64,000 nt of DNA from Candidatus Palauibacter sp. (lineage in GTDB: Bacteria > Gemmatimonadota > Gemmatimonadetes > Palauibacterales > Palauibacteraceae). A model generated the notes under the pieces. The model had not been told where the DNA came from. It saw nothing but the letters and a program-made list of their open reading frames with translations, and ran no database searches. Both the position numbers and the translations under genes were made by a program. Below, piece by piece: positions 3,210 through 26,962 of this stretch. The stretch covers positions 1,209,663 to 1,273,662 of the forward strand of contig NZ_OZ244149.1 of the NCBI RefSeq assembly GCF_965216145.1. The letters are read 5' to 3'. Each line of letters opens with the position of its first letter. Positions within the stretch are counted from its first letter, which is position 1.

Positions 3210-6200
3210 TCAGCGCATGGGCGGAGACGGCACCTGGATCGGGTCGCCGAGGTCCGGGCCGACCCCCGCCGCCTGCACCGCCGAGAAGAGCGCCGGCATC
3301 CGGTCCTCGATCACAGCGTTGAGGCGATCGATGGCGCCGGGCAGCACGTCCCACCCGCGCTCGAGCTGGTAGAGCATGTCGGCGGTCGGCGCGGTGTGGT
3401 ATCCGGACAGGCCGCCGGACACGCCGGCACCGTCCCGGGCCCGGTCGAGTACGTCTCCGATCCCGTCCAGTTCCTCGCCCACGGCCTCGACCTCCGCCGT
3501 CAGCGACTCGGACACGTCGTGGTCCTCGAGCTGCGCCTCGATGTCGGACAGATGGTCGCGCAGCCGGCCCAGGGCCTGCAACCCCTCGTTCGTCGGCTTC
3601 GCCAGCGCGTAGGCGCTCATGAGGGCGTCCTGCCGCGCCATGAGATCGCTCCGGCTGATGTTCACCCGCGGGTCCAGCCGCACCGTGACGGCCGTCTCGA
3701 GCGTCTGCCCCGCCGCCTCCAGCCGGGCCGTGTACGTCCCCGGGAGGGCCTTGGGCGCAGTGGCGCCGGCGCGGAAGAACCCGCCGCCGCCAGGGGCGGC
3801 CGGCGGAGGCTCGTAGCGGAGATCCCACATCACCTCGTTCAGGCCGCGGTCGCCGCCGCCCTCGAGTTCACGGACCATGTCGCCGCTCGAATCGAGGATC
3901 GTGATGGTGGCGTTCCCGGCCATGGAGGCGCCGGCGGCGTCGGACGAGCCGCCGTTGGCGGACGGACCACCTGAACCGGCCACCCGGCCCATCATGTTCG
4001 CCTCATCGTCTTCGGCCATCGGGGCGTCCGGCAGGTCGCTGCCCAGCCAGTAACGGATGCGGGCGCCCTGCGGCGGGTTATCCGCCTCGAAGATGCCCGG
4101 CGTCCAGCCCTGCGGCGTGTACGGGTTGTAGGCGACCGCCGACTGGGTCGAGAAGAGGTGCATCTCGGAGGCGAGCACCGCCTGACTCAGTTCTTCGAGC
4201 GGGGTGACGTCCTCCATGATCCAGATGCCGCGCCCGTGCGTGCCGATGACGAGGTCGTTCTCGCGTTCCTGGATCTTGATGTCGTCCACCGGCACCGGCG
4301 GCATGTTCCGGAGCAGCGGGTGCCACGAGTTCCCGGCGTCGACCGAGAAGTAGGTCCCGATCTCGTTGCCGGCGAAGAGGAGGTTGGCCGCGCGCGGGTG
4401 CTGCTGGAGCGCGTTCATCGACCATCCGTCCGGCAGCCCGTTCGTCATCGCCCGCCACGACTCGCCGTAGTCGTTCGACACGTAGAGGTATGGCGCCATG
4501 TCGTCGTTGCGGTGGTTGTCGCCCGCCACCCACACCGTGCCCGCGTCGGCATGCGAGGCGACGATCCGCGTCATGTACAGCTGGTCGGGCACGCCCGGCA
4601 TGTTGAGCGCCGCGTTCGTCCATGTGCCGCCGCCGTCCCGGGTGACCTGCAGGTTCCCGTCGTCCGTGCCCGCGTAGACCACCATCGGGTCGAGCGGTGA
4701 TTCCTCGATCGAGATCATGTTGCCGAAGGTCGACGTCCCGTCGTTCGCCGACATCATCGGCTCGGAGCCGAGGACGCCCATGATCTCGAGCGTCTGGCGG
4801 TCGATGTCCTTCGTCAGGTCCGGGGAGATCTGCTCCCACGTCTGCCCGTAGTCCGTCGATTTGAACACGACGTTGCCGCCGTAGTAGATCGTATTCGGGT
4901 CGCTCGGCGAGACCTCGACCGGCGTGTCCCAGTTCCAGCGGTAGTCGGGTGGATCCTCTTCATCCTCCCCGGGGCGTCCCAGCGGACGCATCCGGAGACG
5001 CTCGCCGGTCTTCAGGTTCGTCCGCATCAGGTTCCCGTTCTGGGACTCGGCGAGCATCTCCCCGCCGTCGGGGTGGAGGACGGTGAAGTAGCCGTCGCCG
5101 CTCCCCACGTTGTACCAGTCGCGGGGCCGGATGCCCTGGTTGGACCAGGTGTCCGAGGGGCCGCACCACGAGCCGTTGTCCTGCAGGCCGCCGCACACGT
5201 GGTACGGGTCGCGGTTGTCGACCCCGATCTCGTAGAACTGCGCCAGCGGGAGATTGCGGAGCTGCCGCCAGCTGTCGGAGCGGTCCCAGCTGACCGAGAC
5301 GCCTCCGTCGCCGCCGAGGATGAGGTGGTCGGAGTTCCCCGGATCGACCCACAGCGCGTGGTGGTCGGAGTGGACCTCGGAGGACGCGTCCGGCGTGAAG
5401 TTGTTCCCGCCGTCGGAGGAGCGGTACAGGTTCCCGCCGCCCAGGTAGACCCGCTCCGGATCGTTCGGATCGATGCGGATCTGGCTGTAGTACATGGGAC
5501 GGTTGTTCGTCGTGCTGACCTGCGTCCACGTCTCGCCGCGGTCGGTGGACTTGTAGACGCCCGTCTTTTGATCCGGGTTGCCGGGCCCCTGCGGACCGCC
5601 GCCCTGGCCGGGGGCGCGCGCGTCGGCCTCGACGATCGCCATGACGAGGTTCCCGTCGCCCCGGTAGATGTCGAGCCCAATGCGGCCGAGGTCACCCTCC
5701 GGCAGGCCTCCGGCGAGCTTCGTCCAGTTGTCGCCGCCATCCATCGTCCGGTGGATGCCGCTGCCCGGCCCGCCGCCGTTGAAGCCCCACAACGTCCGCT
5801 GCCGCTGGTACATGGCCGCGAACAGCGTCATCGGGTCGCCCGGGTCCATGGCGAGGTCGATCGCGCCCGTGTGCTCGTCGACGTGGAGAACCAGTTCCCA
5901 CGTCTCCCCTGCGTCCATCGTCCGGTACACGCCGCGCTCGGGGTTCGCGCCCCACAGGCGGCCCATCGCCGCCACGTAGGCCACGTCCGGATTCCGCGGG
6001 TGCACCTGGATGCGGGAGATGTGGTGCGTCGCCTCGAGCCCGAGGTGGGTCCACGTCCGGCCGGCGTCCGTCGACCGGAACACGCCCATCCCCCAGGGGG
6101 AGGACTGCCGGTTCTGCGGCTCTCCCGACCCGACCCACACGACGTTCGGGTTCGAGGGCGCAAGCGTCACATCCCCGACCGACAGCATCGGTTGGTCGTC

Positions 6201-16754: not shown

Positions 16755-19700
16755 ATGGACGGGGTGAAACGCATCCAGGTCACTCTCTCAAGGCGAATGG
16801 TCGACCGTCATCCGCCACACATCGACGCCCGTCGCCCCGGGCTTGGGGTCTACGCCGCGCTGCTCGGCGGGGCGGCGGTGTGGGCGGGGTGCGGGCCAGG
16901 GGCGCTCGACTGGGTCGAGGAGGACGGCTACCGCTGGGCCGAGCTTCGAGTTTCGGGCGAGGACGAGCCGGGCTTCGAGCGGCTGGATCCTTCGGAGACC
17001 GGGATTTCGTTCGAGAACGTCGTCACGCAGGAGCAGTTCATCGAGAACAGCCACTACCTGAACGGCTCGGGCGTGGCCGTGGGCGATGTGGATGGCGACG
17101 GCAGGGTCGACATCTACTTCGCGGGGATGGACGGAGCCAACGAACTCTGGCGCAATCTGGGGGGCTGGAAGTTCGAGGAGATCGCCGAGGAGGCGGGCGT
17201 CGCCGCGGCGGGACGCTTCTCGACGGGTGCCGTGTTCGCGGATGTGGACGGCGACGGGGACCTCGACCTCCTCGTCAACGCGCTCGGCGGGCCGAACTCG
17301 CTCTTCGTGAACGACGGGACGGGGCACTTCACGGACGGGGCGGAGGCGGCCGGGCTCTCTTCGGCGCTCGGCAGCATGTCGATGACGCTGGCCGACATCG
17401 AGGGGGATGGGGACCTCGACCTGTACGTGGTGAACAACAAGGTCGCCACGGTGCAGGATCTCTTCCCGCCCGAGGTCCTGCAGCCGCGGAACATCTACCG
17501 CCGGACGGAGGACGGATTCGAGGTTCTGCCGGAGTGGCAGGAGCACTACACGCTCGGGGAGGTCCAGGGCGGCATGGTGCCGCGGCTCGAACTGGCGGAG
17601 CACGACCGGCTGTACGTGAACGACGGGACGGGGCGCTTTTCACCGGTGTCGTTCACGGACGGCGCGTTCCTCGACGAGGCGGGGCAGCCGCTGACCGAGG
17701 CACCGCTCGAGTGGGGGCTGGCGGCGCGTTTCCAGGACATGGATGGGGACGGGGACCCCGACCTGTACGTGTGCAACGACTTCCACAGCCCGGACCACAT
17801 CTGGATCAACGACGGGAGCGGCCGCTTCCGCATGCTCCCGCCGCTCGCCATGCGGAGCACGAGCTTCGCCTCCATGGGGGTGGACTTCTCGGATGTCGAC
17901 CGCGACGAGCGCATGGACTTCTTCGTGGTCGAGATGCTGAGCCGCGAGCAGCGGCTGCGGATGAAGCAGGCCAGCGGGGGCGTGCCGGACCCGCAGTTCG
18001 CGGGGCGGATCGAGAACCGGCCGCAGAAACCCCGCAACACCTTCTATCTGAATCGGGGGGACGGGACGTGGGCGGAGGCGGCGCAGTACGCCGGGGTCGA
18101 CGCGTCGGGGTGGTCGTGGGGCAGCACCTTCGTCGACGTCGATCTCGATGGCTACGAGGACCTCCTCATCGGGACGGGCCACTTCTACGACGCGATGGAC
18201 AAGGACGCGGCCCAGCGCATGGGCTCCGTGGACTGGCGCCAGCGGCTCCTCGTCTTCCCGCCGCTGCGGCTCTCGAACGTCGCCTTCCGCAACCGGGGCG
18301 ACGCGACCTTCGAGGAGGTGGGGGAGGCGTGGGGGTTCGCGGGGGACGAGGACATCTCGCACGGGATGGCGGCGGCGGATCTGGACGAGGATGGGGATCT
18401 GGACATCGTCACCAACCGGTTGCTGGCGCCCGCCGGGGTGTTCCGGAATGTGGGACGGGCGCCCCGGGTGGCCGTGCGACTGCGGGGGCGTGCGCCCAAC
18501 ACTTCGGGGATCGGAGCCCGCATCCGGGTGTCGGGGGGCGAGTTGCCGCCGCAGACGAAGGAGATCGTCGCTGGAGGCGCGTACCTCTCCGGTTCCGAGG
18601 CGCTGGCCAGCTTCGCGGCGGGCGAGGGGGAGATGTCGGTCGAGGTCGTCTGGCGGAGCGGGGCCACGAGCCGGGTGGACGGGGTGCGCGCGAACCGGGT
18701 GTACGAGATTGACGAACCCGCGGTCGGCGGGGCCGCGGCAGCCGGGGCCGGTTCGGCGGCGGTCGGAGCGTCGGATTCGGAGGCGGCGTCCTACAACCCC
18801 CTGTTCGAAGATGTCTCCGGGCTGCTCGGGCACCGGCACCGGGAGAACGAGTTCGACGACTTCGCGCAGCAACCGCTCATCACCTGGCGGCTCAGCCAGA
18901 GCGGACCCGGCGTCGCGTGGGGCGATGTCGACGGTGACGGCGACGCGGACGCCCTGGTGGGCGGAGGCGGCGGGTCCGGCCTCGCGGTGTTCCGGAACGA
19001 TGGCGCCGGGGGGTTCTCCCCGGACCGGGGGGCGCTGGGCGGCGGCGCGGCCGGGCCGGCGCGAGCCCCGGGCGACCAGACGGGCCTCGTCGTCGTGCCC
19101 GCCCGGGCCGGCGCCGCCGTGGTCGTCGGGACCGCGACGTACGACGGGTCCGACCGGGCGGCCTCCGCGGCCTCCGTCCTCCGCGCCACCGCCTCGGGGA
19201 TGGGCGAGTCCCAGACCCTGCCGGCGCACGCGTCGAGTACGGGCCCGCTCGCCGCGGCGGATTACGACGGGGACGGCGACGTCGACCTCTTCGTCGGCGG
19301 CCGCGTGGTCCCCGGTCAGTATCCCGTCCCGGCGACCTCCCGACTCTTCCTCGACGAAGGCGGCCGCTACGTCCTCGACGAGGCGAACGCCGGCCCGCTG
19401 ACCGACGTGGGGCTGGTGTCGGGCGCCGTATTCAGCGATGTGGACGGGGACGGCGACCCCGATCTGATACTGGCCCTCGAGTGGGGGCCCCTGCGTCTCT
19501 TCCTCAACGAGGACGGGCGATTCCAGGACGCGACGGCAAGCTTCGGCCTCGAGTCCCTCACGGGCTGGTGGAACGGCGTGACGGCGGGAGACCTCAACGA
19601 GGACGGACTGCCGGACCTGATCGCCACCAACCGGGGGCTCAACTCGGAGTACACGGCGAGTCCGGAGCATCCGGCCACCGCCTATCACGCCGACCTCGAC

Positions 19701-20567
19701 AACGATGGGTTCCGGGACGTGATCGAGGCGCGCTACGACGAGTTCACGCGCTCGATGGTCCCGATCCGGGGACTCCTCACGCTCGCCGGCGGTCTGCCCT
19801 TCCTCAGGGGCCAGATCCAGGGGCACGAGCACTACGGGCGGCTGGCGGTCGGAGAGATCCTGGGGCAGCCGGTCGATCTCCTCCCGACGGCCGAGGCGAC
19901 AACGCTCGCCCACACGGTCTTCATCAACCGGGGAGGGTCCTTCGAGGCCTTCGACCTGCCGCGGGAGGCGCAGTTGGCGCCGGCCTTCCACGCCGGCGTG
20001 GCGGACATGGACGGGGACGGGCACGAGGATGTCTTCCTGAGCCAGAACCTGTTCGCGTTCCGGAGCGAGGGGGACCGCAACGACGCGGGGCGCGGCCTGT
20101 GGCTGCGGGGCGATGGGACGGGGGCGCTGGCGCCGGTCCCGAGACAGCGTTCGGGCATTGCGGTGTACGGGGAGCAGCGGGGGGCGGCGTTCGCGGACTA
20201 CGACGCGGACGGGCGCGTGGACGTGCTCGTGAGCCAGAACGCCGCCGGGACGAAGCTGTACCGGAACGCGGGCGCCCGGCCCGGGCTGCGCGTCCGGCTG
20301 CGCGGCGGCCCCGGCAACCCGGCCGCCATCGGCGCTTCGATCCGGCTGGAGTACGGCGGCGGGACGCCCGGTCCGCTACGAGAGGTCCGCGCCGGGGGTG
20401 GCTACTGGTCGCAGGATGATCCGGTTCAAGTGATGGGGCTCGCGGCCGAACCCACTGCGGTCCGCGTCCGCTGGCCCGATGGCTCGGAGACGGTCACCCC
20501 GCTGGACGGCCCGACCCCGCTGGAGGTGACGATCGACGGGACCGGCGCGCTCGTGGCCCGCCGCTGA
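16755..20567 (+). CDS. CRTAC1-like FG-GAP repeat protein with two ASPIC/UnbV domains
   Basis: Many D.DGDGD.DL Ca-binding repeats; NGSGVAVGD, GWSWG..F.D and IGA.I......Q..E...GGGY.S motifs, the last occurring twice. The start may be 16797. Confidence 0.85.
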   Translation: MDGVKRIQVTLSRRMVDRHPPHIDARRPGLGVYAALLGGAAVWAGCGPGALDWVEEDGYRWAELRVSGEDEPGFERLDPSETGISFENVVTQEQFIENSHYLNGSGVAVGDVDGDGRVDIYFAGMDGANELWRNLGGWKFEEIAEEAGVAAAGRFSTGAVFADVDGDGDLDLLVNALGGPNSLFVNDGTGHFTDGAEAAGLSSALGSMSMTLADIEGDGDLDLYVVNNKVATVQDLFPPEVLQPRNIYRRTEDGFEVLPEWQEHYTLGEVQGGMVPRLELAEHDRLYVNDGTGRFSPVSFTDGAFLDEAGQPLTEAPLEWGLAARFQDMDGDGDPDLYVCNDFHSPDHIWINDGSGRFRMLPPLAMRSTSFASMGVDFSDVDRDERMDFFVVEMLSREQRLRMKQASGGVPDPQFAGRIENRPQKPRNTFYLNRGDGTWAEAAQYAGVDASGWSWGSTFVDVDLDGYEDLLIGTGHFYDAMDKDAAQRMGSVDWRQRLLVFPPLRLSNVAFRNRGDATFEEVGEAWGFAGDEDISHGMAAADLDEDGDLDIVTNRLLAPAGVFRNVGRAPRVAVRLRGRAPNTSGIGARIRVSGGELPPQTKEIVAGGAYLSGSEALASFAAGEGEMSVEVVWRSGATSRVDGVRANRVYEIDEPAVGGAAAAGAGSAAVGASDSEAASYNPLFEDVSGLLGHRHRENEFDDFAQQPLITWRLSQSGPGVAWGDVDGDGDADALVGGGGGSGLAVFRNDGAGGFSPDRGALGGGAAGPARAPGDQTGLVVVPARAGAAVVVGTATYDGSDRAASAASVLRATASGMGESQTLPAHASSTGPLAAADYDGDGDVDLFVGGRVVPGQYPVPATSRLFLDEGGRYVLDEANAGPLTDVGLVSGAVFSDVDGDGDPDLILALEWGPLRLFLNEDGRFQDATASFGLESLTGWWNGVTAGDLNEDGLPDLIATNRGLNSEYTASPEHPATAYHADLDNDGFRDVIEARYDEFTRSMVPIRGLLTLAGGLPFLRGQIQGHEHYGRLAVGEILGQPVDLLPTAEATTLAHTVFINRGGSFEAFDLPREAQLAPAFHAGVADMDGDGHEDVFLSQNLFAFRSEGDRNDAGRGLWLRGDGTGALAPVPRQRSGIAVYGEQRGAAFADYDADGRVDVLVSQNAAGTKLYRNAGARPGLRVRLRGGPGNPAAIGASIRLEYGGGTPGPLREVRAGGGYWSQDDPVQVMGLAAEPTAVRVRWPDGSETVTPLDGPTPLEVTIDGTGALVARR

Positions 20568-20570
20568 CGC

Positions 20571-21116
20571 TCAGCCGCCCTTGAGGGCGCGGATTCGTCG
20601 AGCGACCTCGCGGGCCATTTCGTTCGGGATGGGAATCGTGAGGTTGTACTGGGCGATCTTCCAGCGCCCGTCTTCCAGCACGAGCACGCCGCTGCCCCGT
20701 GTCTCCCCCAGGTTGGCGTTCTCGAGACGCTCGTCGAACCAGGCGGTGCGGGCGTCGGGGGCGATGGAGACGTGACGCTCGAGCATGTGGTACGTCCAGC
20801 CGGTGCCGGTGTCGAAGCGGGCCCTCGTGTAATCCATGAACGCCTCGCGCGTCCAGCGCTCGGTGGCGTCGGTTCCGAGGAAGACGGCCTCGCGGGCGTA
20901 GAGGCTGAAGTAACCGTCGAAATCCGTCTCGGAGGCCGCCTCGTGGAGCGCATCGAGGACGGCCGAGACGTCGGCGCGGGCACGGCTCTCTTCGACCGCG
21001 GCCGATTGCGCGGCGAGCCCGCCCGCGGCGAACTGCAGCATGAGCGCCGGGACGATCGTCGGCACAAGCCGTAGCGCGAGTCGCGGGCGGCGGGCCGGAG
21101 GGGCGGGGTTCAGCAT
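20571..21116 (-). CDS. Secreted SnoaL/NTF2-like protein
   Basis: LDALHEAAS..DFDGYF, FLGTDATERW, AWFDE.L, RGSGVL, WKIAQYNLTIPIPN. Confidence 0.85.
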   Translation of the reverse strand: MLNPAPPARRPRLALRLVPTIVPALMLQFAAGGLAAQSAAVEESRARADVSAVLDALHEAASETDFDGYFSLYAREAVFLGTDATERWTREAFMDYTRARFDTGTGWTYHMLERHVSIAPDARTAWFDERLENANLGETRGSGVLVLEDGRWKIAQYNLTIPIPNEMAREVARRIRALKGG

Positions 21117-21274
21117 GGCTTCCTCATGAATGTCTCGGGTCGGAGGGGTGCGTGGCGTTCGGCCTTCGTCCGTGTCCCCACCTCGCGTGATCCTACCTGA
21201 GCCGCGCACGAGCAACTAGTCTGTCGCGTTGGGTCGCTTCACGGTCGACCCGAACCCGGGAACCGGAGGTTGCC

Positions 21275-22573
21275 ATGAATCCATACCCCCTGATGAGGCG
21301 GAGGACGCGGCGGGTCGCGGTCGTCTGCGCCGCCATCGTCTGCGCGGTGGCCGCGTGCGCGCCGGACACCGGCGAGGACGCGTCGGGGTCGGGTCCCGGA
21401 GAGGCCATCGACGGGGCGATCGTCATCCGGGCGGACCGCATCCTCGACGGGCGCGGAGAGGCGCTCACGGGTCGGGAGGTGGTGGTGCGCGGCGGGCGGA
21501 TCGAGGCGATCGCGGAAGCGGGGTCCACGCGGGGCGCGGTGGTGTACGACCTGCCGGGTGCGACGCTGCTGCCGGGACTCATCGACACGCACGTCCACCT
21601 CGGCTGGCACTTCGACGCCGAGACGGGGCGGCTGCACGGCGCCGAATCGACGGACACGGCCGAGGACGAGATCCTCTACGCGGCCGAGAACGCCTGGAAC
21701 ATGCTGGTCAGCGGCGTCACCACGGTGCAGAGCGTGGGCGGACCCGAGGACGTGCCGCTCCGGGACGCGATCGCGCGGGGGTCGCTGCCGGGCCCGCGCG
21801 TCCTGACGTCGATCGAGCCCATCACGGCCGGGACGGGCGGACCGGACGAGATCCGGGCGCGCGTGGACGCGCTGGCGCAGGCGGGCGCGGACGTCATCAA
21901 GATCTTCGGGTCCGCCAGCATCAGGGTCGGCGGCGCGCCGACGCTGAGCCAGGAACAACTGGACGCCGCCTGTGGCCAGGCCCGCGAGCACGGCCTGCGC
22001 GCGGTCGTCCACGCCCACGGGCCCGAGAGCGCGCAGCGCTCCGCCCGGGCCGGCTGCTGGCAGATCGAGCACGGCGCGCTCCTGGACCGCGAGACACTCG
22101 ACCTCCTCTCGGAACGGCGTCTCTTCTTCGATCCGCACATTCACCTGATCTTCGAGAACTACTTCGCCAACCAGGAACGTTATCTGGGGATCGGGAACTA
22201 CACGGAGGAGGGGTTCCGGCAGATGCGCGAGGCGGTGCCGACCGCGCTGGACGTCTTCCGCGAGGCGCTTCAGGTGGAGGGACTCGAGATCGTGTTCGGC
22301 ACCGACGCCGTGGCCGGCGCCCACGGGCGCAACTGGGCGGAGTTGGCGTATCGCGTCCGCGAGGGCGGTCAGGATCCGATGGCGGCGATCGTGTCGGCCA
22401 CGAGCCTCGCGGCCGAGGCGATCGAGCTGGGGGAAAGCGTGGGCACGCTCGCGGCGGGCTTCGAGGCCGACGTGATCGCGGTGGCGGGGAATCCGCTGGC
22501 CGACATCGGAGCCCTCGAACATGTGGTGCTGGTCATGCGCGGCGGGGTCGTCTACCGGCACCGGCCGATGTAG
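21275..22573 (+). CDS. Amidohydrolase (imidazolonepropionase/Xaa-Pro dipeptidase-like) lipoprotein
   Basis: Lipobox VAAC; LPGLIDTHVH, GADVIKIF, HAHG, IEHG, FGTD and GFEAD motifs. Confidence 0.85.
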   Translation: MNPYPLMRRRTRRVAVVCAAIVCAVAACAPDTGEDASGSGPGEAIDGAIVIRADRILDGRGEALTGREVVVRGGRIEAIAEAGSTRGAVVYDLPGATLLPGLIDTHVHLGWHFDAETGRLHGAESTDTAEDEILYAAENAWNMLVSGVTTVQSVGGPEDVPLRDAIARGSLPGPRVLTSIEPITAGTGGPDEIRARVDALAQAGADVIKIFGSASIRVGGAPTLSQEQLDAACGQAREHGLRAVVHAHGPESAQRSARAGCWQIEHGALLDRETLDLLSERRLFFDPHIHLIFENYFANQERYLGIGNYTEEGFRQMREAVPTALDVFREALQVEGLEIVFGTDAVAGAHGRNWAELAYRVREGGQDPMAAIVSATSLAAEAIELGESVGTLAAGFEADVIAVAGNPLADIGALEHVVLVMRGGVVYRHRPM

Positions 22574-22677
22574 GGATCCCGGGCGACACCTGACGGTAGG
22601 ACCCCTCGTAGGGGGGTTACGGCGAGGGCCGGCTTCGGCTGAAGCCGCGAAGCCGAACGGCAACCGGAAGGAGATGC

Positions 22678-22914
22678 ATGAAGCGGTCGATCGAGCAGGC
22701 GCAGGAGCGGCTCGCGAACGATTTGCTCCGCCGTCGCGACGTTGTCGCCGTCGGCATCGGGGCCGATAACGGTGAGCCCTGCCTCAAGGTGTACGTGTCG
22801 GGACGGAGCGACCGCAGGTCGATCCCCCGCCGGTACGACGGGCACGAGGTACGGGTGGTCGGCGGCGGTCCGTTCCGGGCGCAGGCCGACGGCCCGGCGG
22901 CCGGCAGCCAATAG
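22678..22914 (+). CDS. Small protein: free-standing copy of the N-terminal domain of the downstream protease
   Basis: 78 aa, GAAGGAG RBS; VVAVGIG...GEPCLKVYV...IP...G.EV.V..GGPFRA aligns with VVGVGIG...GAPTIKVFV...FP...G.FPV.V..AGPFRV in 22933-24054. Confidence 0.75.
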   Translation: MKRSIEQAQERLANDLLRRRDVVAVGIGADNGEPCLKVYVSGRSDRRSIPRRYDGHEVRVVGGGPFRAQADGPAAGSQ

Positions 22915-22932
22915 CCGCCGGGGGTACGAACG

Positions 22933-24054
22933 ATGACGCCGCGCCGAAACCTGATCCTCGCGATCGTGATCGCGGTGGCCGCGGTCCTCGCACTCCATCT
23001 CCACTGGATCTCGACCTGGGCGCCCGGGCCGCCGCCGCGGCCCGGCCCGCGTCCGCCGCTTACCCCCGGGGGCGCGACACCCGAGCAGCTTCTGGCCGCG
23101 GCCATGCGGGTTCAGACCGACTTCGAGCCGAGCCTGTTCGCCCTCCCGGGAGTAGTCGGCGTGGGCATCGGCTTCGGCGACGCGGGTGCCCCGACGATCA
23201 AGGTCTTCGTCGATTCGTCGCTGCCCCGGGCCGCGTTTCCGCAGGCCCTTGGGAACTTCCCGGTCTCCGTGCAGCCGGCCGGGCCGTTCCGGGTCCTGCC
23301 GCCTGAACCGATCGCGTCGGAGAGGGGCGAGGACGAAGACCCGGTGCCGACGGGCCGCTTCGAGCGGCCGGTTCCGATGGGGGTGTCCACGGGCCACACC
23401 CGCTCCACGGCGGGCACGATCGGCGCCGTCGTGACCGATGGCGAGCGCCGCTACGCACTCAGCAACTGGCACGTGTTCGTTCCCGGCGGGGACGCGCGGG
23501 TGGGCGATATCCTGCTGCAACCGGGCCCGGTCGACGGCGGCGCGGATCCGGCCGACGCGATCGGCACGCTGGCGGCGTTCGAGCCGGTGGTCCTGTCGCT
23601 CTTCGCCACCAACCGGATCGACGCCGCGATCGCCCGCACGGACGAGGTGCTGCCGGAGACGCCGGTGGGGGGCTATGGGTCGCCGCGCAGCGCGACGATG
23701 GCGGCGAAGCCGGGGCTGCAGGTCCAGAAGTACGGGCGCACGACGCGCCTCACGGTCGGGGAGGTGGAGGCGGTCAACGCGTCGGTCAACGTGACGTACG
23801 GGTCGGCCGGATCGCAGGTGGGCCGCTTCACCGGCCAGATCATGGTGTGCTGCAATTTCAGCGCGGGGGGCGACTCGGGCTCGCTGATCGTGGCGCGCGA
23901 TCTCGACCGCGACGGCACCGCCGGGCCCGACGACCGCAAGCCGGTCGCGCTGCTCTTCGCCGGCGACGGGCGGCTGACGATCGGCAACCCGATCGACCTC
24001 GTGCTCGACCGCTTCGACGTGACGATCGTGGGAGAGGACGGCGCTGGCCGCTGA
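22933..24054 (+). CDS. Membrane-anchored or secreted trypsin-like (S1, Nal1-like) serine protease
   Basis: N-terminal TM and Pro-rich linker; GTIGAVV, LSNWHV (His), DAAIA (Asp), FSAGGDSGSLI (Ser), V.LLFAG. Confidence 0.8.
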   Translation: MTPRRNLILAIVIAVAAVLALHLHWISTWAPGPPPRPGPRPPLTPGGATPEQLLAAAMRVQTDFEPSLFALPGVVGVGIGFGDAGAPTIKVFVDSSLPRAAFPQALGNFPVSVQPAGPFRVLPPEPIASERGEDEDPVPTGRFERPVPMGVSTGHTRSTAGTIGAVVTDGERRYALSNWHVFVPGGDARVGDILLQPGPVDGGADPADAIGTLAAFEPVVLSLFATNRIDAAIARTDEVLPETPVGGYGSPRSATMAAKPGLQVQKYGRTTRLTVGEVEAVNASVNVTYGSAGSQVGRFTGQIMVCCNFSAGGDSGSLIVARDLDRDGTAGPDDRKPVALLFAGDGRLTIGNPIDLVLDRFDVTIVGEDGAGR

Positions 24055-24105
24055 GCCGTGGGCCCGACTGGCCACCTGCGCGGCGTAACGGCTAGGTTGG
24101 CGGCT

Positions 24106-24330
24106 ATGCAACGCTTCCGTTCACACTACCTGCCGCGTACGCGTCCGGGCCGGCTGCTGCTCGCCCTCTTCCTGGGCCTGTTCGCGTTCACTCAGCCGCC
24201 ACTCGTGTTCTGGATCGGTAACCGCGTCGAGCCGTTGCTGGGCGGGCTGCCATTTCTCTACGTCTATCTTCTCGTCTTCTACTGCCTCCTCATCGGGGTC
24301 CTCGTCTGGATGAAGAGGCGAGAACTCTGA
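24106..24330 (+). CDS. Small two-TM partner protein of a sodium:solute symporter (DUF3311/DUF485-like)
   Basis: 74 aa, two hydrophobic segments, N.VEP.LGGLPF motif; its stop overlaps the symporter start. Confidence 0.7.
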   Translation: MQRFRSHYLPRTRPGRLLLALFLGLFAFTQPPLVFWIGNRVEPLLGGLPFLYVYLLVFYCLLIGVLVWMKRREL

Positions 24331-25844: not shown

Positions 25845-26297
25845 GTGGGCAAGCTCGTGGGAGGTCTCGCCCTCCTGTCGCTGGCGCTGTTCATGGTGCT
25901 CGGCTTCGTGCGCGCCGATGTCGACCCGTTGGCGCTCCGCACGATGGTGGCGCTCCTGATCGGGGCCGGGCTGCCGGCGGCGGGGGGCGTCTGGCTGCTG
26001 GCGCGCTACCGCGGGGTCGGGAGCCGGATCGAACACCGGCGCGAGCAACTGCGCCGCGACACGCTGGAGGCCGAGATCCTGAGGATGGCCGGGCGGCACG
26101 ACGGGCGGCTCACCGCGGTCGAAGTCGCGGGCGAACTGGCGGTGCCGACGACGACGGCGGAGGAGCTGCTGAACGAACTGATGGCGCGGGACATGGCCGA
26201 CATCGAGATCACCGACTCGGGTCTGCTCGTCTACACCTTCCACGACGTGCGACACCTGTCCGAGAAGGAATCGGCCCGAGGACTGCTGGAATCGTGA
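25845..26297 (+). CDS. Two-TM membrane protein with a C-terminal winged-helix-like domain
   Basis: Two TM helices, then EILRMA..HDGRLTAVEVA.EL......EELL..L...D...IE.TDSG..VY.F. Confidence 0.7.
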   Translation: MGKLVGGLALLSLALFMVLGFVRADVDPLALRTMVALLIGAGLPAAGGVWLLARYRGVGSRIEHRREQLRRDTLEAEILRMAGRHDGRLTAVEVAGELAVPTTTAEELLNELMARDMADIEITDSGLLVYTFHDVRHLSEKESARGLLES

Positions 26298-26962
26298 GCG
26301 AGACGCGCTGGCCGTGCCCCGTCTGTCTCGGGGTGAAGATGGAGAAGGCTTCGCTGGGATCGGGGGGCCGAGGCGGCGAGGGCGCGCTCACACTCGACCA
26401 CTGTGCCCGCTGCGGAGGCATGTGGTTCGAGCTGGGTGAGGTGCAGCGGCTCCGCGCGGAGCGTCCCGAGTCTCTGTGGGCGCGGATCCCGGCCCGCGAC
26501 GAGCGGCACCGGGCCCAGTGTCACACGTGCCGCGCGTTCGTGGACCGCGACGCGCCCCGGTGCGGGGCGTGCGGCGCGAAGACCCGGCTGAACTGTCCCG
26601 CCTGCGATACCACGATGCTTCAGGTCCGACAGTCCGAGCTGACGCTGGATGTCTGCAAGCGGTGCAAGGGCGTGTGGTTCGACCACCACGAACTCGAGGC
26701 GATCTGGGTGCTGGAACGGGACCGGGTCGTCGCGAGGCGCGGTAAGGGCGCAAGCCCCGCGCGCGGCGCGGAGACAGGCTCGGAGGTCCTCCTCCAGACC
26801 CTCTTCTGGGCACCGGATCTCGTCTTCGTGGGGGCGCACGTCGCCGGGCACGCGGTGGCGGCCGCGGCCCAAGCCGCCCCGGCCGTGCTCGAGGCCGCCG
26901 GGGAGGCCGCGGCCAGCGTGTTCGAGGCCATCGTCGAGATCGTGGCCGGCATCTTCGGCTGA
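26294..26962 (+). CDS. Protein with two TFIIB-type zinc ribbons and a central zinc ribbon
   Basis: Six CxxC pairs (CPVC, CARC, CHTC, CGAC, CPAC, CKRC); L.LD.C..C.G.WF...E repeated twice; GTGA overlap with the upstream gene. Confidence 0.8.
   Translation: MSETRWPCPVCLGVKMEKASLGSGGRGGEGALTLDHCARCGGMWFELGEVQRLRAERPESLWARIPARDERHRAQCHTCRAFVDRDAPRCGACGAKTRLNCPACDTTMLQVRQSELTLDVCKRCKGVWFDHHELEAIWVLERDRVVARRGKGASPARGAETGSEVLLQTLFWAPDLVFVGAHVAGHAVAAAAQAAPAVLEAAGEAAASVFEAIVEIVAGIFG

Follow-up and report, generated by a model that had tools for sequence, protein, structure and literature searches.

In the SpeB-Spi and staphopain-staphostatin systems, a small gene adjoins the gene of a secreted protease and is co-transcribed with it; Spi is a 'propeptide analogue' encoded beside speB, the staphostatins are placed similarly, and the small proteins, which are signal-less, are thought to shield the cytoplasm against enzyme that becomes active too early (PMC2873492). 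Potempins are lipoprotein inhibitors of 98-132 aa whose genes lie directly upstream of peptidases in the KLIKK operons of Tannerella forsythia, and they are membrane-anchored and specific for the cognate secreted peptidase (PMC9890683). The Pro regions of the alpha-lytic/streptogrisin proteases act in cis as chaperone and inhibitor; they are N-terminal alpha/beta domains whose C-terminal tail occupies the active site (title of entry 1boq). In yeast Ssy5 (peptidase S64), inhibition lasts until the N-terminal prodomain, which remains bound to the enzyme, is removed (PMC6761765). In the rice protease NARROW LEAF 1 (NAL1), the 'ATP-binding domain' (ABD) stays attached and uncleaved and builds a trimer by docking on the neighbour's protease domain; ATP is held by ABD loops (R120, R122, K123, K139), the oligomeric state controls activity, and the ABD promotes both assembly and activity (PMC12012508). 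That structural paper makes no mention of a free-standing ABD paralogue.

Here we describe a gene pair within a stretch of 64,000 nucleotides of Candidatus Palauibacter sp. (Gemmatimonadota), which we call the window and whose numbering we use throughout. The features of the pair are as follows.

22666..22673, + strand: Shine-Dalgarno-like GGAAGGAG, 4 nt 5' of the small-gene ATG (read in the sequence)
22678..22914, + strand: small gene, 78 aa, no signal peptide, paralogue of the protease N-domain (ORF, homologues, hhalign, AF2, dN/dS)
22780..22782, + strand: codon of Cys35 in the motif PC[IL]KV[YF]V, hallmark of the small-protein family (conservation)
22933..24054, + strand: gene for a NAL1-type S1 (chymotrypsin-fold) serine protease, 373 aa (homologues, Foldseek, PDB profile match, AF2)
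22939..23016, + strand: N-terminal hydrophobic membrane anchor, aa 3-28 (AF2 helix 3-28; Kyte-Doolittle maximum 2.99)
23017..23079, + strand: Pro-rich spacer, aa 29-49, APGPPPRPGPRPPLTPGG... (sequence; low pLDDT, 58-74)
23080..23292, + strand: protease N-domain, aa 50-120, one helix and three strands, AGPFRV at its end (hhalign, AF2)
23293..23364, + strand: variable acidic linker between N-domain and catalytic domain, aa 121-144 (length-variable in alignment A2; pLDDT 58)
23365..24036, + strand: catalytic double beta-barrel domain, aa 145-368 (invariant columns, Foldseek, codons)
23470-23472, 23620-23622 and 23875-23877, + strand: codons of the triad H180, D230 and S315 (read in the sequence)

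The gene pair and its NAL1-type protease

The small ORF runs from an ATG at 22678 to a TAG at 22912-22914, and the window sequence holds no further in-frame start 5' of that ATG. Its ribosome-binding site, which the first-pass annotation had reported, is legible as the Shine-Dalgarno-like stretch in the list, and a gap of 18 nt separates the small gene from the protease start at 22933. Metatranscriptome contigs indicate that both genes are transcribed: one sponge metatranscriptome contig covers 22563-22852 and so reaches into the small gene, and none of the contigs found, all of them short, spans 22868-23009. No sigma-70 promoter or intrinsic terminator was found around the gene pair, in a high-GC phylum where such motifs are uninformative. 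In the window the two genes share a reading frame, which we attribute to chance because in a related locus (L001) they lie in different frames and their stop-to-stop ORFs overlap; an in-frame fusion by read-through of the TAG was rejected on the same ground.

We found 23 close homologues of the small protein, each standing alone and 74-88 aa long, and its gene evolves under purifying selection within the window's clade (dN/dS = 0.04-0.29). AF2 predicts a fold of one helix and three strands, alpha1(5-16)-beta(22-30)-beta(33-40)-beta(56-61), with a mean pLDDT of 80; in this model of the isolated protein the conserved tail, GGGPFRA, has no ordered structure. One could suppose that such an ORF is a non-functional duplication relic or spurious, since it is short and without a Pfam family, and the high-GC genome around it abounds in chance ORFs; however, its stand-alone homologues number in the thousands and cross phyla, its linkage to the protease is conserved, its fold is confidently predicted, its codons are under selection and a metatranscriptome contig lies over it. 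Conservation and selection already refute a relic, and we give that explanation practically no weight. The 78-aa ORF and the 373-aa protease ORF are both genuine genes.

The protease has more than 2,630 homologues and gives a confident model (AF2; pLDDT 88.9, pTM 0.83) with two barrels in the catalytic domain and with the N-domain formed by a helix (50-69) and three strands (74-81, 87-94 and 109-116). H180, D230 and S315 stand in chymotrypsin order and are invariant in 72 protease homologues, and residues 3-28 form a helix in the model; the enzyme had been called a NAL1-type protease with an intact His-Asp-Ser triad and an N-terminal transmembrane segment, and each part of that description held. 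The flexible linker (aa 121-144) would permit cleavage and is a possible but unproven processing region.

Using the reference structures of NAL1 (PDB 7Y77, 8PMG and 8PMM) and its Pfam family Nal1_C (PF25819), we found that the protease model matches NAL1 over 364-434 aligned columns (Foldseek E 3.5e-15 to 6e-13, TMq 0.54-0.61) and that a PDB profile search gives E 3.8e-9. The window protease scores 13.5 bits against PF25819, where the gathering cut-off is 26.1, and homologues of 45-50% identity lie above that cut-off (P0097 at 37.0, P0084 at 34.6 and P0117 at 28.5 bits), as do many further homologues among precomputed matches. The next-best structural matches of the catalytic domain, behind NAL1, come from the alpha-lytic protease/SGPB family (S1E; Foldseek), and a weak match to Pfam S64 falls in the same C-terminal barrel region. 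The N-domain aligns weakly with NAL1 residues ~57-209 in the profile comparison, with the pattern GTAVG...PAILVFV...LPA.LEG common to both, and it corresponds to the NAL1 ABD. The N-domain had been labelled 'pro-like', a label that we leave as unproven because the equivalent domain of NAL1 is uncleaved and forms the trimer interface. Neither the small protein nor the protease nor diverse homologues of either gave a Pfam match to Pro_Al_protease or to I9, the type of POIA1 that the first-pass annotation had named (hmmscan E<=1).

Ancient paralogy and two-way gene linkage

To compare the small protein with the N-domain, we aligned a profile of 24 small proteins to one of 23 proteases and found that residues 5-76 of the small protein align with residues 57-129 of the protease at a probability of 97.8% and E 7.7e-13 (hhalign, profile-profile). 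The homology proposed in the first-pass annotation thus stands, and the motif pairs on which it was based (VVAVGIG/VVGVGIG, GEPCLKVYV/GAPTIKVFV and GGPFRA/AGPFRV) are legible in both translations. Pairwise BLASTP of the window's small protein against the protease gives 16/46 identities (E 1e-6), and an HMM of either domain detects the other domain in nearly all of 80 related loci. A motif G-x-F-R-A(L) is common to the N-domain and the small protein; it forms a beta-bridge in the protease model and is disordered in the isolated small-protein model (AF2). Most small proteins end 0-3 residues past this motif, and tails past it are short throughout the family (0-10 aa) and not conserved.

In a tree, the small proteins form one clade that is cleanly apart from all protease N-domains. 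The window's small protein shares 30% identity with the N-domain of its own protease and 35% with small proteins from other phyla, and the hallmark Cys, invariant in alignments A1 and A6, is present in 99% of 70 small proteins, whereas all 78 N-domains have V, A, T, I or S in its place. We also looked for the Cys in the N-domains of proteases that have no partner and did not find it. The small protein is therefore not a recent copy of the protease's 'own' N-domain, as had been suggested, but one member of an old family of free-standing N-domain paralogues that has no annotation. Clustering at 90% identity leaves at least 2,560 clusters of this family, and at 50% identity there are 949 representatives. 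The description 'signal-less' is right for the window's 78-aa protein and does not extend to the family: absence of a signal is not a family trait, because many partners are lipoproteins, and the lipoprotein partners go together with strongly hydrophobic signals on the protease. Fusions also occur, as lipoproteins of two or three tandem small domains and as a protease with two C-terminal N-like domains. One protein, P0266, consists of three small-domain repeats.

When we examined gene neighbourhoods starting from the protease, an adjacent small gene on the same strand was present at 68/80 loci in more than 10 phyla. The linked loci come from Gemmatimonadota, Planctomycetota, Desulfobacterota, Bacteroidota, Calditrichota, Latescibacterota, Fibrobacterota, Nitrospinota, Acidobacteriota and Gammaproteobacteria, the last including Vibrio bivalvicida. 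In the converse direction, among 34 metagenome loci whose sequence extended at least 1.6 kb upstream of the small gene, 33 had the protease there, a count that was taken from the narrow alignment A7 and covers one large subclade only. Stand-alone homologues and co-occurrence with the protease, which the first-pass annotation had proposed looking for, were thus both found. The gaps between the two genes are mostly 4-20 nt. The usual order is protease followed by small gene, with the small gene directly downstream in about 60/68 loci; an upstream small gene occurs only in the Palauibacter clade and at a handful of loci elsewhere, so that a protease 'preceded by' its small gene is true of the window and not of most loci, and the order in the window is a clade-specific inversion. 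The small gene is missing at about 14% of protease loci and is therefore dispensable in some lineages. A cultured carrier of the pair is Vibrio bivalvicida 605 (L079), and V. nereis (L078) naturally lacks the partner. In all, the loci L001-L160 contain roughly 130 natural pairs.

No third conserved gene accompanies the pair beyond lineage synteny (at most 13/81 loci). The neighbours in the window encode an amidohydrolase, a SnoaL-like protein, an SSF symporter and an FG-GAP/ASPIC protein, which we call housekeeping. PADLOC models of anti-phage defence gave no match for the small protein, the protease or their homologues, and with such neighbours a defence-island context was rejected. The arrangement had not been recognised as described, and we likewise found no description of it in Pfam, NCBIfam, PADLOC or the literature searched.

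Possible roles of the small protein

The pair most likely consists of an enzyme and its dedicated regulator, and on the best reading the small protein would restrain, or possibly assemble, the protease; we infer both the physical binding and the inhibitory direction. In the reading that we tentatively favour, while stopping short of calling it probable, the small protein is the protease's dedicated partner that mimics its N-domain, a cognate inhibitor or 'immunity' protein. The region would then be a conserved, putative two-gene operon, with the small protein as the first gene product and, as the second, a protease built in the order membrane anchor, Pro-rich spacer, alpha/beta N-domain, flexible linker and chymotrypsin-fold catalytic domain. 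By mimicking the N-domain, the small protein would dock on the protease domain or on the docking surface of the N-domain, its G-x-F-R-A tail would gain order upon binding, and the bound form would hold the enzyme inactive or unassembled until the proper place or time. A free small protein would have an obvious binding site, because the equivalent domain of NAL1 docks in trans. Since the window's partner has no signal peptide, its action would be cytoplasmic; in this clade it may act on the not-yet-exported protease, as proposed for the staphostatins and Spi, and the lipoprotein partners of many other lineages may act in the periplasm, like the potempins. The inhibitory prodomain of Ssy5, from the related S64 family, is a further precedent.

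Several observations count against this reading. The window protease looks periplasm-facing and its partner lacks a signal, and for most of their lives they may thus sit in different compartments. Every protease already has its own N-domain, which makes a binding site for a second copy problematic. The loss of the partner at about 14% of protease loci also counts against it, as does the finding that the equivalent domain of NAL1 promotes assembly and activity. Tat export of a pre-folded protease was considered as an answer to the compartment puzzle and rejected for the window's clade; the RR of the protease N-terminus MTPRRN is not conserved and is RK, KR, SR, HR or NR in homologues. In Foldseek the small-protein model has no significant match (best E 0.065), and its resemblance to NAL1 (8pmg_C, TMq 0.50) is likewise below significance.

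Alternatively, the small protein could help in trans with folding or assembly: as a second 'pro-like' half it would join the cis N-domain in clamping and folding the catalytic domain and then leave, much as in the two-subdomain alpha-lytic Pro region or with the membrane-anchored steric chaperone Lif. The closeness of the catalytic domain, after NAL1, to the pro-region-dependent alpha-lytic protease/SGPB family suggests such a role, as do the tandem multi-domain versions of the small protein and the lipoprotein-anchored partners encoded right downstream of the enzyme. The order of enzyme and then anchored partner recalls that of lipase and foldase. The small model also weakly resembles the alpha-lytic Pro region (2pro_A/B: TMq 0.41-0.43, rmsd 3.2-3.9, 63 columns), but at E about 0.5 this is below significance, and a Pro_Al_protease match in Pfam is lacking. 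Moreover, a signal-less cytoplasmic partner like that of the window would be unable to fold a Sec-exported enzyme in the periplasm, and 14% of proteases do without a partner. We regard a folding factor as a doubtful explanation. What NAL1 itself suggests is a stoichiometric subunit, cap or adaptor of an oligomeric cage, which would fill ABD-type sites, set the oligomer state or recruit substrates and would activate or target the enzyme instead of inhibiting it: the homologous NAL1 domain builds the trimer on a neighbour's protease domain, oligomeric state controls activity there, the structural match to NAL1 takes in the whole protease model, and the three-repeat protein P0266 could match a trimer. 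Yet a closed ring of cis N-domains has no free site; the N-terminal beta-strand that NAL1 needs for hexamers is here replaced by a membrane anchor; and the compartment mismatch of the window applies equally. We consider this unlikely. Finally, the motif common to the N-domain/linker junction and the small-protein C-terminus would fit a substrate or decoy that the protease cuts at G-x-F-R-A, as perhaps it cuts its own N-domain, so as to free a tail peptide or titrate activity. A signalling peptide is improbable because the tails past the motif are short and not conserved, and purifying selection acts over the whole domain and not on the tail alone, so a substrate role appears very unlikely.

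Beyond the window, it is conceivable, and to us somewhat doubtful, that the small family as a whole represents phylum-spanning dedicated regulators of NAL1-type proteases, which arose by ancient duplication of the protease's own ABD-like docking domain and act by mimicry, competing for or extending the N-domain interface on the catalytic domain and thereby gating assembly or activity. For such a regulator family, the invariant Cys could be a switch or a contact residue, and lipoprotein and signal-less isoforms, possibly made from one gene by alternative starts, would guard both sides of the inner membrane. It would also imply that the 'ATP-binding domain' of plant NAL1 descends from a bacterial regulatory or docking module.

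If the small protein is a cognate regulator, an unannotated family of thousands of sequences that has no Pfam or NCBIfam model would gain a defined role, and a widespread, unstudied class of bacterial secreted or membrane S1 proteases would gain specific partners. The pair would provide a serine-protease case of an enzyme controlled by a free-standing copy of its own domain, of which few are known and Spi/SpeB is the clear case. It would further offer a way into the evolution and mechanism of the odd 'ABD' of NAL1, a crop-yield protease, and the partners could serve, as they stand, as specific inhibitors of proteases of this class or as tools for assembling them.

Comparison with described systems

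We regard the pair as a version of the known protease/cognate-partner operon, with a small family that is itself unannotated. NAL1 is the nearest relative of the enzyme: like the bacterial protease, it has a catalytic triad, a double beta-barrel and an alpha/beta domain directly N-terminal of the protease domain. However, NAL1 is a cytosolic and nuclear plant protein whereas the bacterial proteases carry a membrane anchor or signal peptide, and NAL1 has an extra NTD strand for hexamers and binds ATP in its ABD loops. The loops of the bacterial N-domain are far shorter, and the basic residues that contact ATP in NAL1 are not evidently conserved in it.

Ssy5 is eukaryotic and has a large prodomain and no free-standing copy, in contrast to the window's pair, which is bacterial and has one. 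Pro regions of the alpha-lytic type are, to our knowledge, always encoded in cis and never as separate genes. The potempin operons have the gene order of the window, and the potempins have the lipoprotein form that the small family takes elsewhere, although the window's partner carries no lipoprotein signal. We know of no potempin that is a paralogue of any domain of its target peptidase. The adjacency of small gene and protease gene in SpeB-Spi and staphopain-staphostatin is as in the window, and just as Spi is an analogue of SpeB's own propeptide, the small protein is homologous to the N-terminal region of its protease. In contrast, SpeB and staphopain are cysteine proteases (C10/C47) unrelated in sequence to the window's serine protease, and the region copied in SpeB is a propeptide, whereas the NAL1 homologue of the window's N-domain is retained. 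Compared with Spi and the staphostatins, the present small-protein family is also far wider in distribution and often takes the form of a lipoprotein.

A two-gene unit in the window

Within 22666-24054 of the + strand we found two closely spaced genes, encoding a small protein and a protease, and the genes that flank this pair are ordinary chromosomal genes. GGAAGGAG precedes the ATG of the small ORF at 22678, and no alternative upstream start in frame with this ORF was found when the sequence was read.

Features of the region around the gene pair
16755-20567, upstream: FG-GAP/VCBS-repeat protein, 1,270 aa, with ASPIC/UnbV C-terminal domains; unrelated to the finding
20571-21215, minus strand: SnoaL-like protein
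21275-22573: amidohydrolase
22678-22914, + strand: small-protein ORF, 78 aa, ATG 22678 to TAG 22912-22914, from ORF reading
22933-24054, + strand: protease ORF, 373 aa, its ATG 18 nt past the small ORF
24058-24330: two-TM ORF, 90 aa, without a Pfam match, directly before the symporter and overlapping it by the stop codon
24330-25823, downstream of the protease: SSF sodium:solute symporter
26294-26962: Zn-ribbon protein

The symporter ORF is kept 3' of the protease in eight related loci. The two genes of the pair share a reading frame, with the TAG and six codons between them. Programmed read-through was considered and rejected, as the shared frame looks coincidental because the frames of the two genes differ in the related locus L001. 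The closest database relatives belong to Candidatus Palauibacter (Gemmatimonadota lineage), among them the protease P0001 (locus L005, NZ_OZ250143.1), which is 98-99% identical to the window protease. Among the public runs that contain the stretch are metagenomes and metatranscriptomes of sponges. Short metatranscriptome contigs, none of which spans the junction, indicate transcription of both genes.

Relation of the small protein to the protease N-domain and to NAL1

The small protein is homologous to the N-domain of the protease, and the motif pairs reported in the first-pass annotation are visible directly in both translations. By pairwise BLASTP the two proteins share 16/46 identities (E 1e-6); when a profile of 24 small proteins was compared with one of 23 diverse proteases, residues 5-76 of the small protein aligned with 57-129 of the protease (probability 97.8%, E 7.7e-13); and, across 80 related loci, an HMM of either domain almost always picked up the other. 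These three tests show a similarity beyond chance. The original observation is confirmed and its interpretation supported in part, the module and the N-domain homology being right.

In the AF2 model of the protease (pLDDT 88.9, pTM 0.83), we found a TM helix followed by a Pro-rich spacer, an alpha/beta N-domain, an acidic linker and two beta-barrels. The N-terminal TM and the intact triad that had been claimed are both present: the helix spans aa 3-28 and is strongly hydrophobic, and His180, Asp230 and Ser315 do not vary among 72 homologues. The N-domain consists of a helix (50-69), three strands (74-81, 87-94, 109-116) and a two-residue bridge (F119-R120), and the acidic linker (aa 121-146) is modelled at low confidence. 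The small protein, modelled separately, has a confident alpha/beta fold (mean pLDDT 80; helix 5-16, strands 22-30, 33-40 and 56-61), and its conserved GGGPFRA tail is disordered in this isolated model.

The best Foldseek match of the protease is rice NAL1 (E 3.5e-15), with 364-434 aligned columns that cover the whole chain; the alpha-lytic protease/streptogrisin family comes next, matched over the catalytic domain only (E around 1e-10). The protease sequence profile also matches NAL1 (E 3.8e-9), and a weak N-terminal profile alignment to NAL1 has the same GTAVG...PAILVFV...LPA.LEG pattern. The window protease falls under the Pfam Nal1_C threshold; its homologues pass it. In NAL1, aa 89-172 form the 'ATP-binding domain' (ABD), four strands and a curved helix, which is retained and contacts the adjacent subunit at its protease domain, building the trimer (PMC12012508). 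Given the NAL1 matches and this retained ABD, the label 'Nal1-type' has structural support and the label 'pro-like' is unproven: of the homologues of the N-domain that have been characterised, the nearest is a docking domain that stays in place permanently, and a Pfam sequence search gave no match to a propeptide family. The small-protein model compares with the alpha-lytic Pro region (2pro) at a TMq of 0.41-0.43 and with NAL1 at 0.50, both below significance. Weak matches to the eukaryotic ribosomal protein eS7, by sequence profile (E 0.02-0.2) and by Foldseek with the small model, probably reflect a generic alpha/beta fold resemblance.

The two domains are ancient paralogues. In a neighbour-joining tree of 70 small domains and 78 protease N-domains from the same loci, all 70 small domains fall in one clade without any N-domain, and the window small protein has 30% identity to its own N-domain and an average of 35% to small proteins from distant phyla. 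These data indicate that the duplication is ancient and that both lineages have co-existed since; the small protein is not, as first described, a copy of its own protease's N-domain. The clearest family signature is the Cys in PC[IL]KV[YF]V, present in 99% of the 70 small proteins compared, at a column that is V, A, T, I or S in each of the 78 N-domains compared. The window residue is Cys35 (codon 22780-22782); it could serve in packing, as a contact residue or in redox/covalent chemistry.

Linkage, family and localisation

Linkage of the two genes is strict in both directions. A protease-based survey covered 80 genome loci from at least ten phyla, with Gemmatimonadota predominant (the others were Planctomycetota, Desulfobacterota, Bacteroidota, Calditrichota, Latescibacterota, Fibrobacterota, Nitrospinota, Acidobacteriota and Gammaproteobacteria, including Vibrio bivalvicida), and the small gene adjoins the protease on the same strand in 68 of them. 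A more sensitive re-search of the other 12 loci, two of which are near contig ends, gave nothing further except a partial match in L032. In a survey based on the small gene (80 metagenome loci, one large subclade), 34 loci had 1.6 kb or more of sequence upstream, and in 33 of these the protease catalytic domain lies upstream on the same strand. Beyond lineage-level synteny no third gene is common to the loci, so the conserved unit is exactly two genes. About 14% of protease loci have no partner, which indicates that the partner is not obligatory for the enzyme everywhere; V. nereis and V. bivalvicida offer a natural comparison pair. In both of these cultured vibrios (V. nereis, L078; V. bivalvicida 605, L079) the protease has an extra C-terminal domain. 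The small partner is present in V. bivalvicida alone of the two, where it has a TM segment at its N-terminus; what comes after the protease in V. nereis, as in the uncultured Pseudomonadota MAG L080, is an ORF for a large membrane protein.

Usually the protease gene comes first and the small gene second, frequently with 4-20 nt between them. The description of the protease as preceded by the small gene holds in the Palauibacter clade (window, L001-L006, L062) and in L094, L149 and L154, whereas elsewhere the small gene is usually downstream. In L037 (Gemmatimonadota) small genes flank the protease on both sides, a signal-less copy upstream (3640-3858) and one with a lipobox downstream (5083-5292), and this locus may be intermediate between the two orders.

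The small ORF is a genuine gene that belongs to a large family. Stand-alone homologues are abundant: 23 close ones (74-88 aa) have invariant C35, H56 and GGGPF, and a profile built from 37 diverse members retrieved, at E<=1e-3, 2,560 clusters defined at 90% identity. All of the 120 best are proteins of 73-137 aa without a Pfam domain, and every source name shown among them is 'hypothetical protein'. When 1.84 billion representatives were scanned exhaustively with HMMER, 949 matched; of the 150 matches listed, the majority are 68-140 aa long and stand alone. We found no model for the family in Pfam, NCBIfam or PADLOC. Within the Palauibacter clade the small gene is under purifying selection (dN/dS 0.04-0.29).

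Longer protease relatives carry C-terminal Big/CARDB Ig-like domains and others have classical signal peptides or lipoboxes, which argues that the protease family is extracytoplasmic. The small protein was described as signal-less; this is true of the window's protein and of others but not of the family, as many partners carry a lipoprotein signal (L-x-G-C lipobox) at the N-terminus, together with a linker. Signal-bearing partners accompany strongly hydrophobic protease signals, and in Longimicrobiales signal-less partners accompany weaker hydrophobic segments with a conserved Asp or Glu. The window clade is the exception, combining a strong anchor and Pro-rich spacer with a signal-less partner, a puzzle as to compartment. 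The moderately hydrophobic segment with a mid-segment Asp/Glu is seen in the Longimicrobiales-type proteases of L009, L010, L013, L015, L016, L019-L031, L034-L040, L043, L046, L050 and L051, where the small partner lacks a signal; it may reflect another mode of export or anchoring, or a non-exported enzyme. Long small proteins with a lipoprotein signal, from downstream genes (L041, L042, L045, L047, L048, L060, L064, L069 and others; also P0144, P0197 and P0234), retain an ATG placed 1-5 codons ahead of the domain in 20/23 loci, with an SD-like purine run upstream of it in 16/23. Because this internal ATG coincides precisely with the start position of the short signal-less forms, a single gene may yield both an exported isoform and a cytoplasmic one; alternatively, the long starts may have been called wrongly.

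Among the architectural variants (P0344, P0366, P0266, P0268, P0276, P0302, P0313, P0289, P0405), P0344 combines a lipoprotein signal and a protease domain with two N-like domains at the C-terminus, and has no N-terminal N-domain; there are also secreted proteins in which small domains stand in tandem, in two or three copies, and small domains fused to Cys-rich modules (DUF333-like by eye). These variants suggest that the module works together with the protease domain.

Possible roles and known protease/partner systems

We propose that the small protein would bind its protease by mimicking the N-domain, because the homologous domain of NAL1 docks in trans on a protease domain and because N-domain and small protein both end in a G-x-F-R-A(L) motif. 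Most small proteins end 0-3 residues past this motif, which has no structure in the small-protein model alone and forms a bridge in the model of the whole protease; a segment that becomes ordered on binding would be expected to behave in this way.

Restraint of the enzyme, by a cognate inhibitor or 'immunity' protein, appears the most likely direction, tentatively and at somewhat under an even chance. It is favoured because of its precedents: Spi, a propeptide analogue whose gene adjoins speB, and the staphostatins, which lack a signal (PMC2873492); the potempins, lipoproteins with genes immediately 5' of those of their peptidases (PMC9890683); and Ssy5, a related S64 protease with an inhibitory prodomain (PMC6761765). 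That the small protein is a trans-acting foldase or second pro-half seems rather doubtful. NAL1 activity is controlled by oligomeric state (PMC12012508), and that the small protein would serve a NAL1-like oligomer as assembly subunit or adaptor is likewise conceivable but unlikely; a substrate or decoy is improbable, and a relic is effectively excluded by conservation of the gene.

Operons of a protease and its cognate partner are already known, one of them with a propeptide analogue. The particular pair here, a bacterial NAL1-type S1 protease and a free-standing paralogue of its ABD-like N-domain from a large, unannotated family, was not found in the libraries and literature searched.
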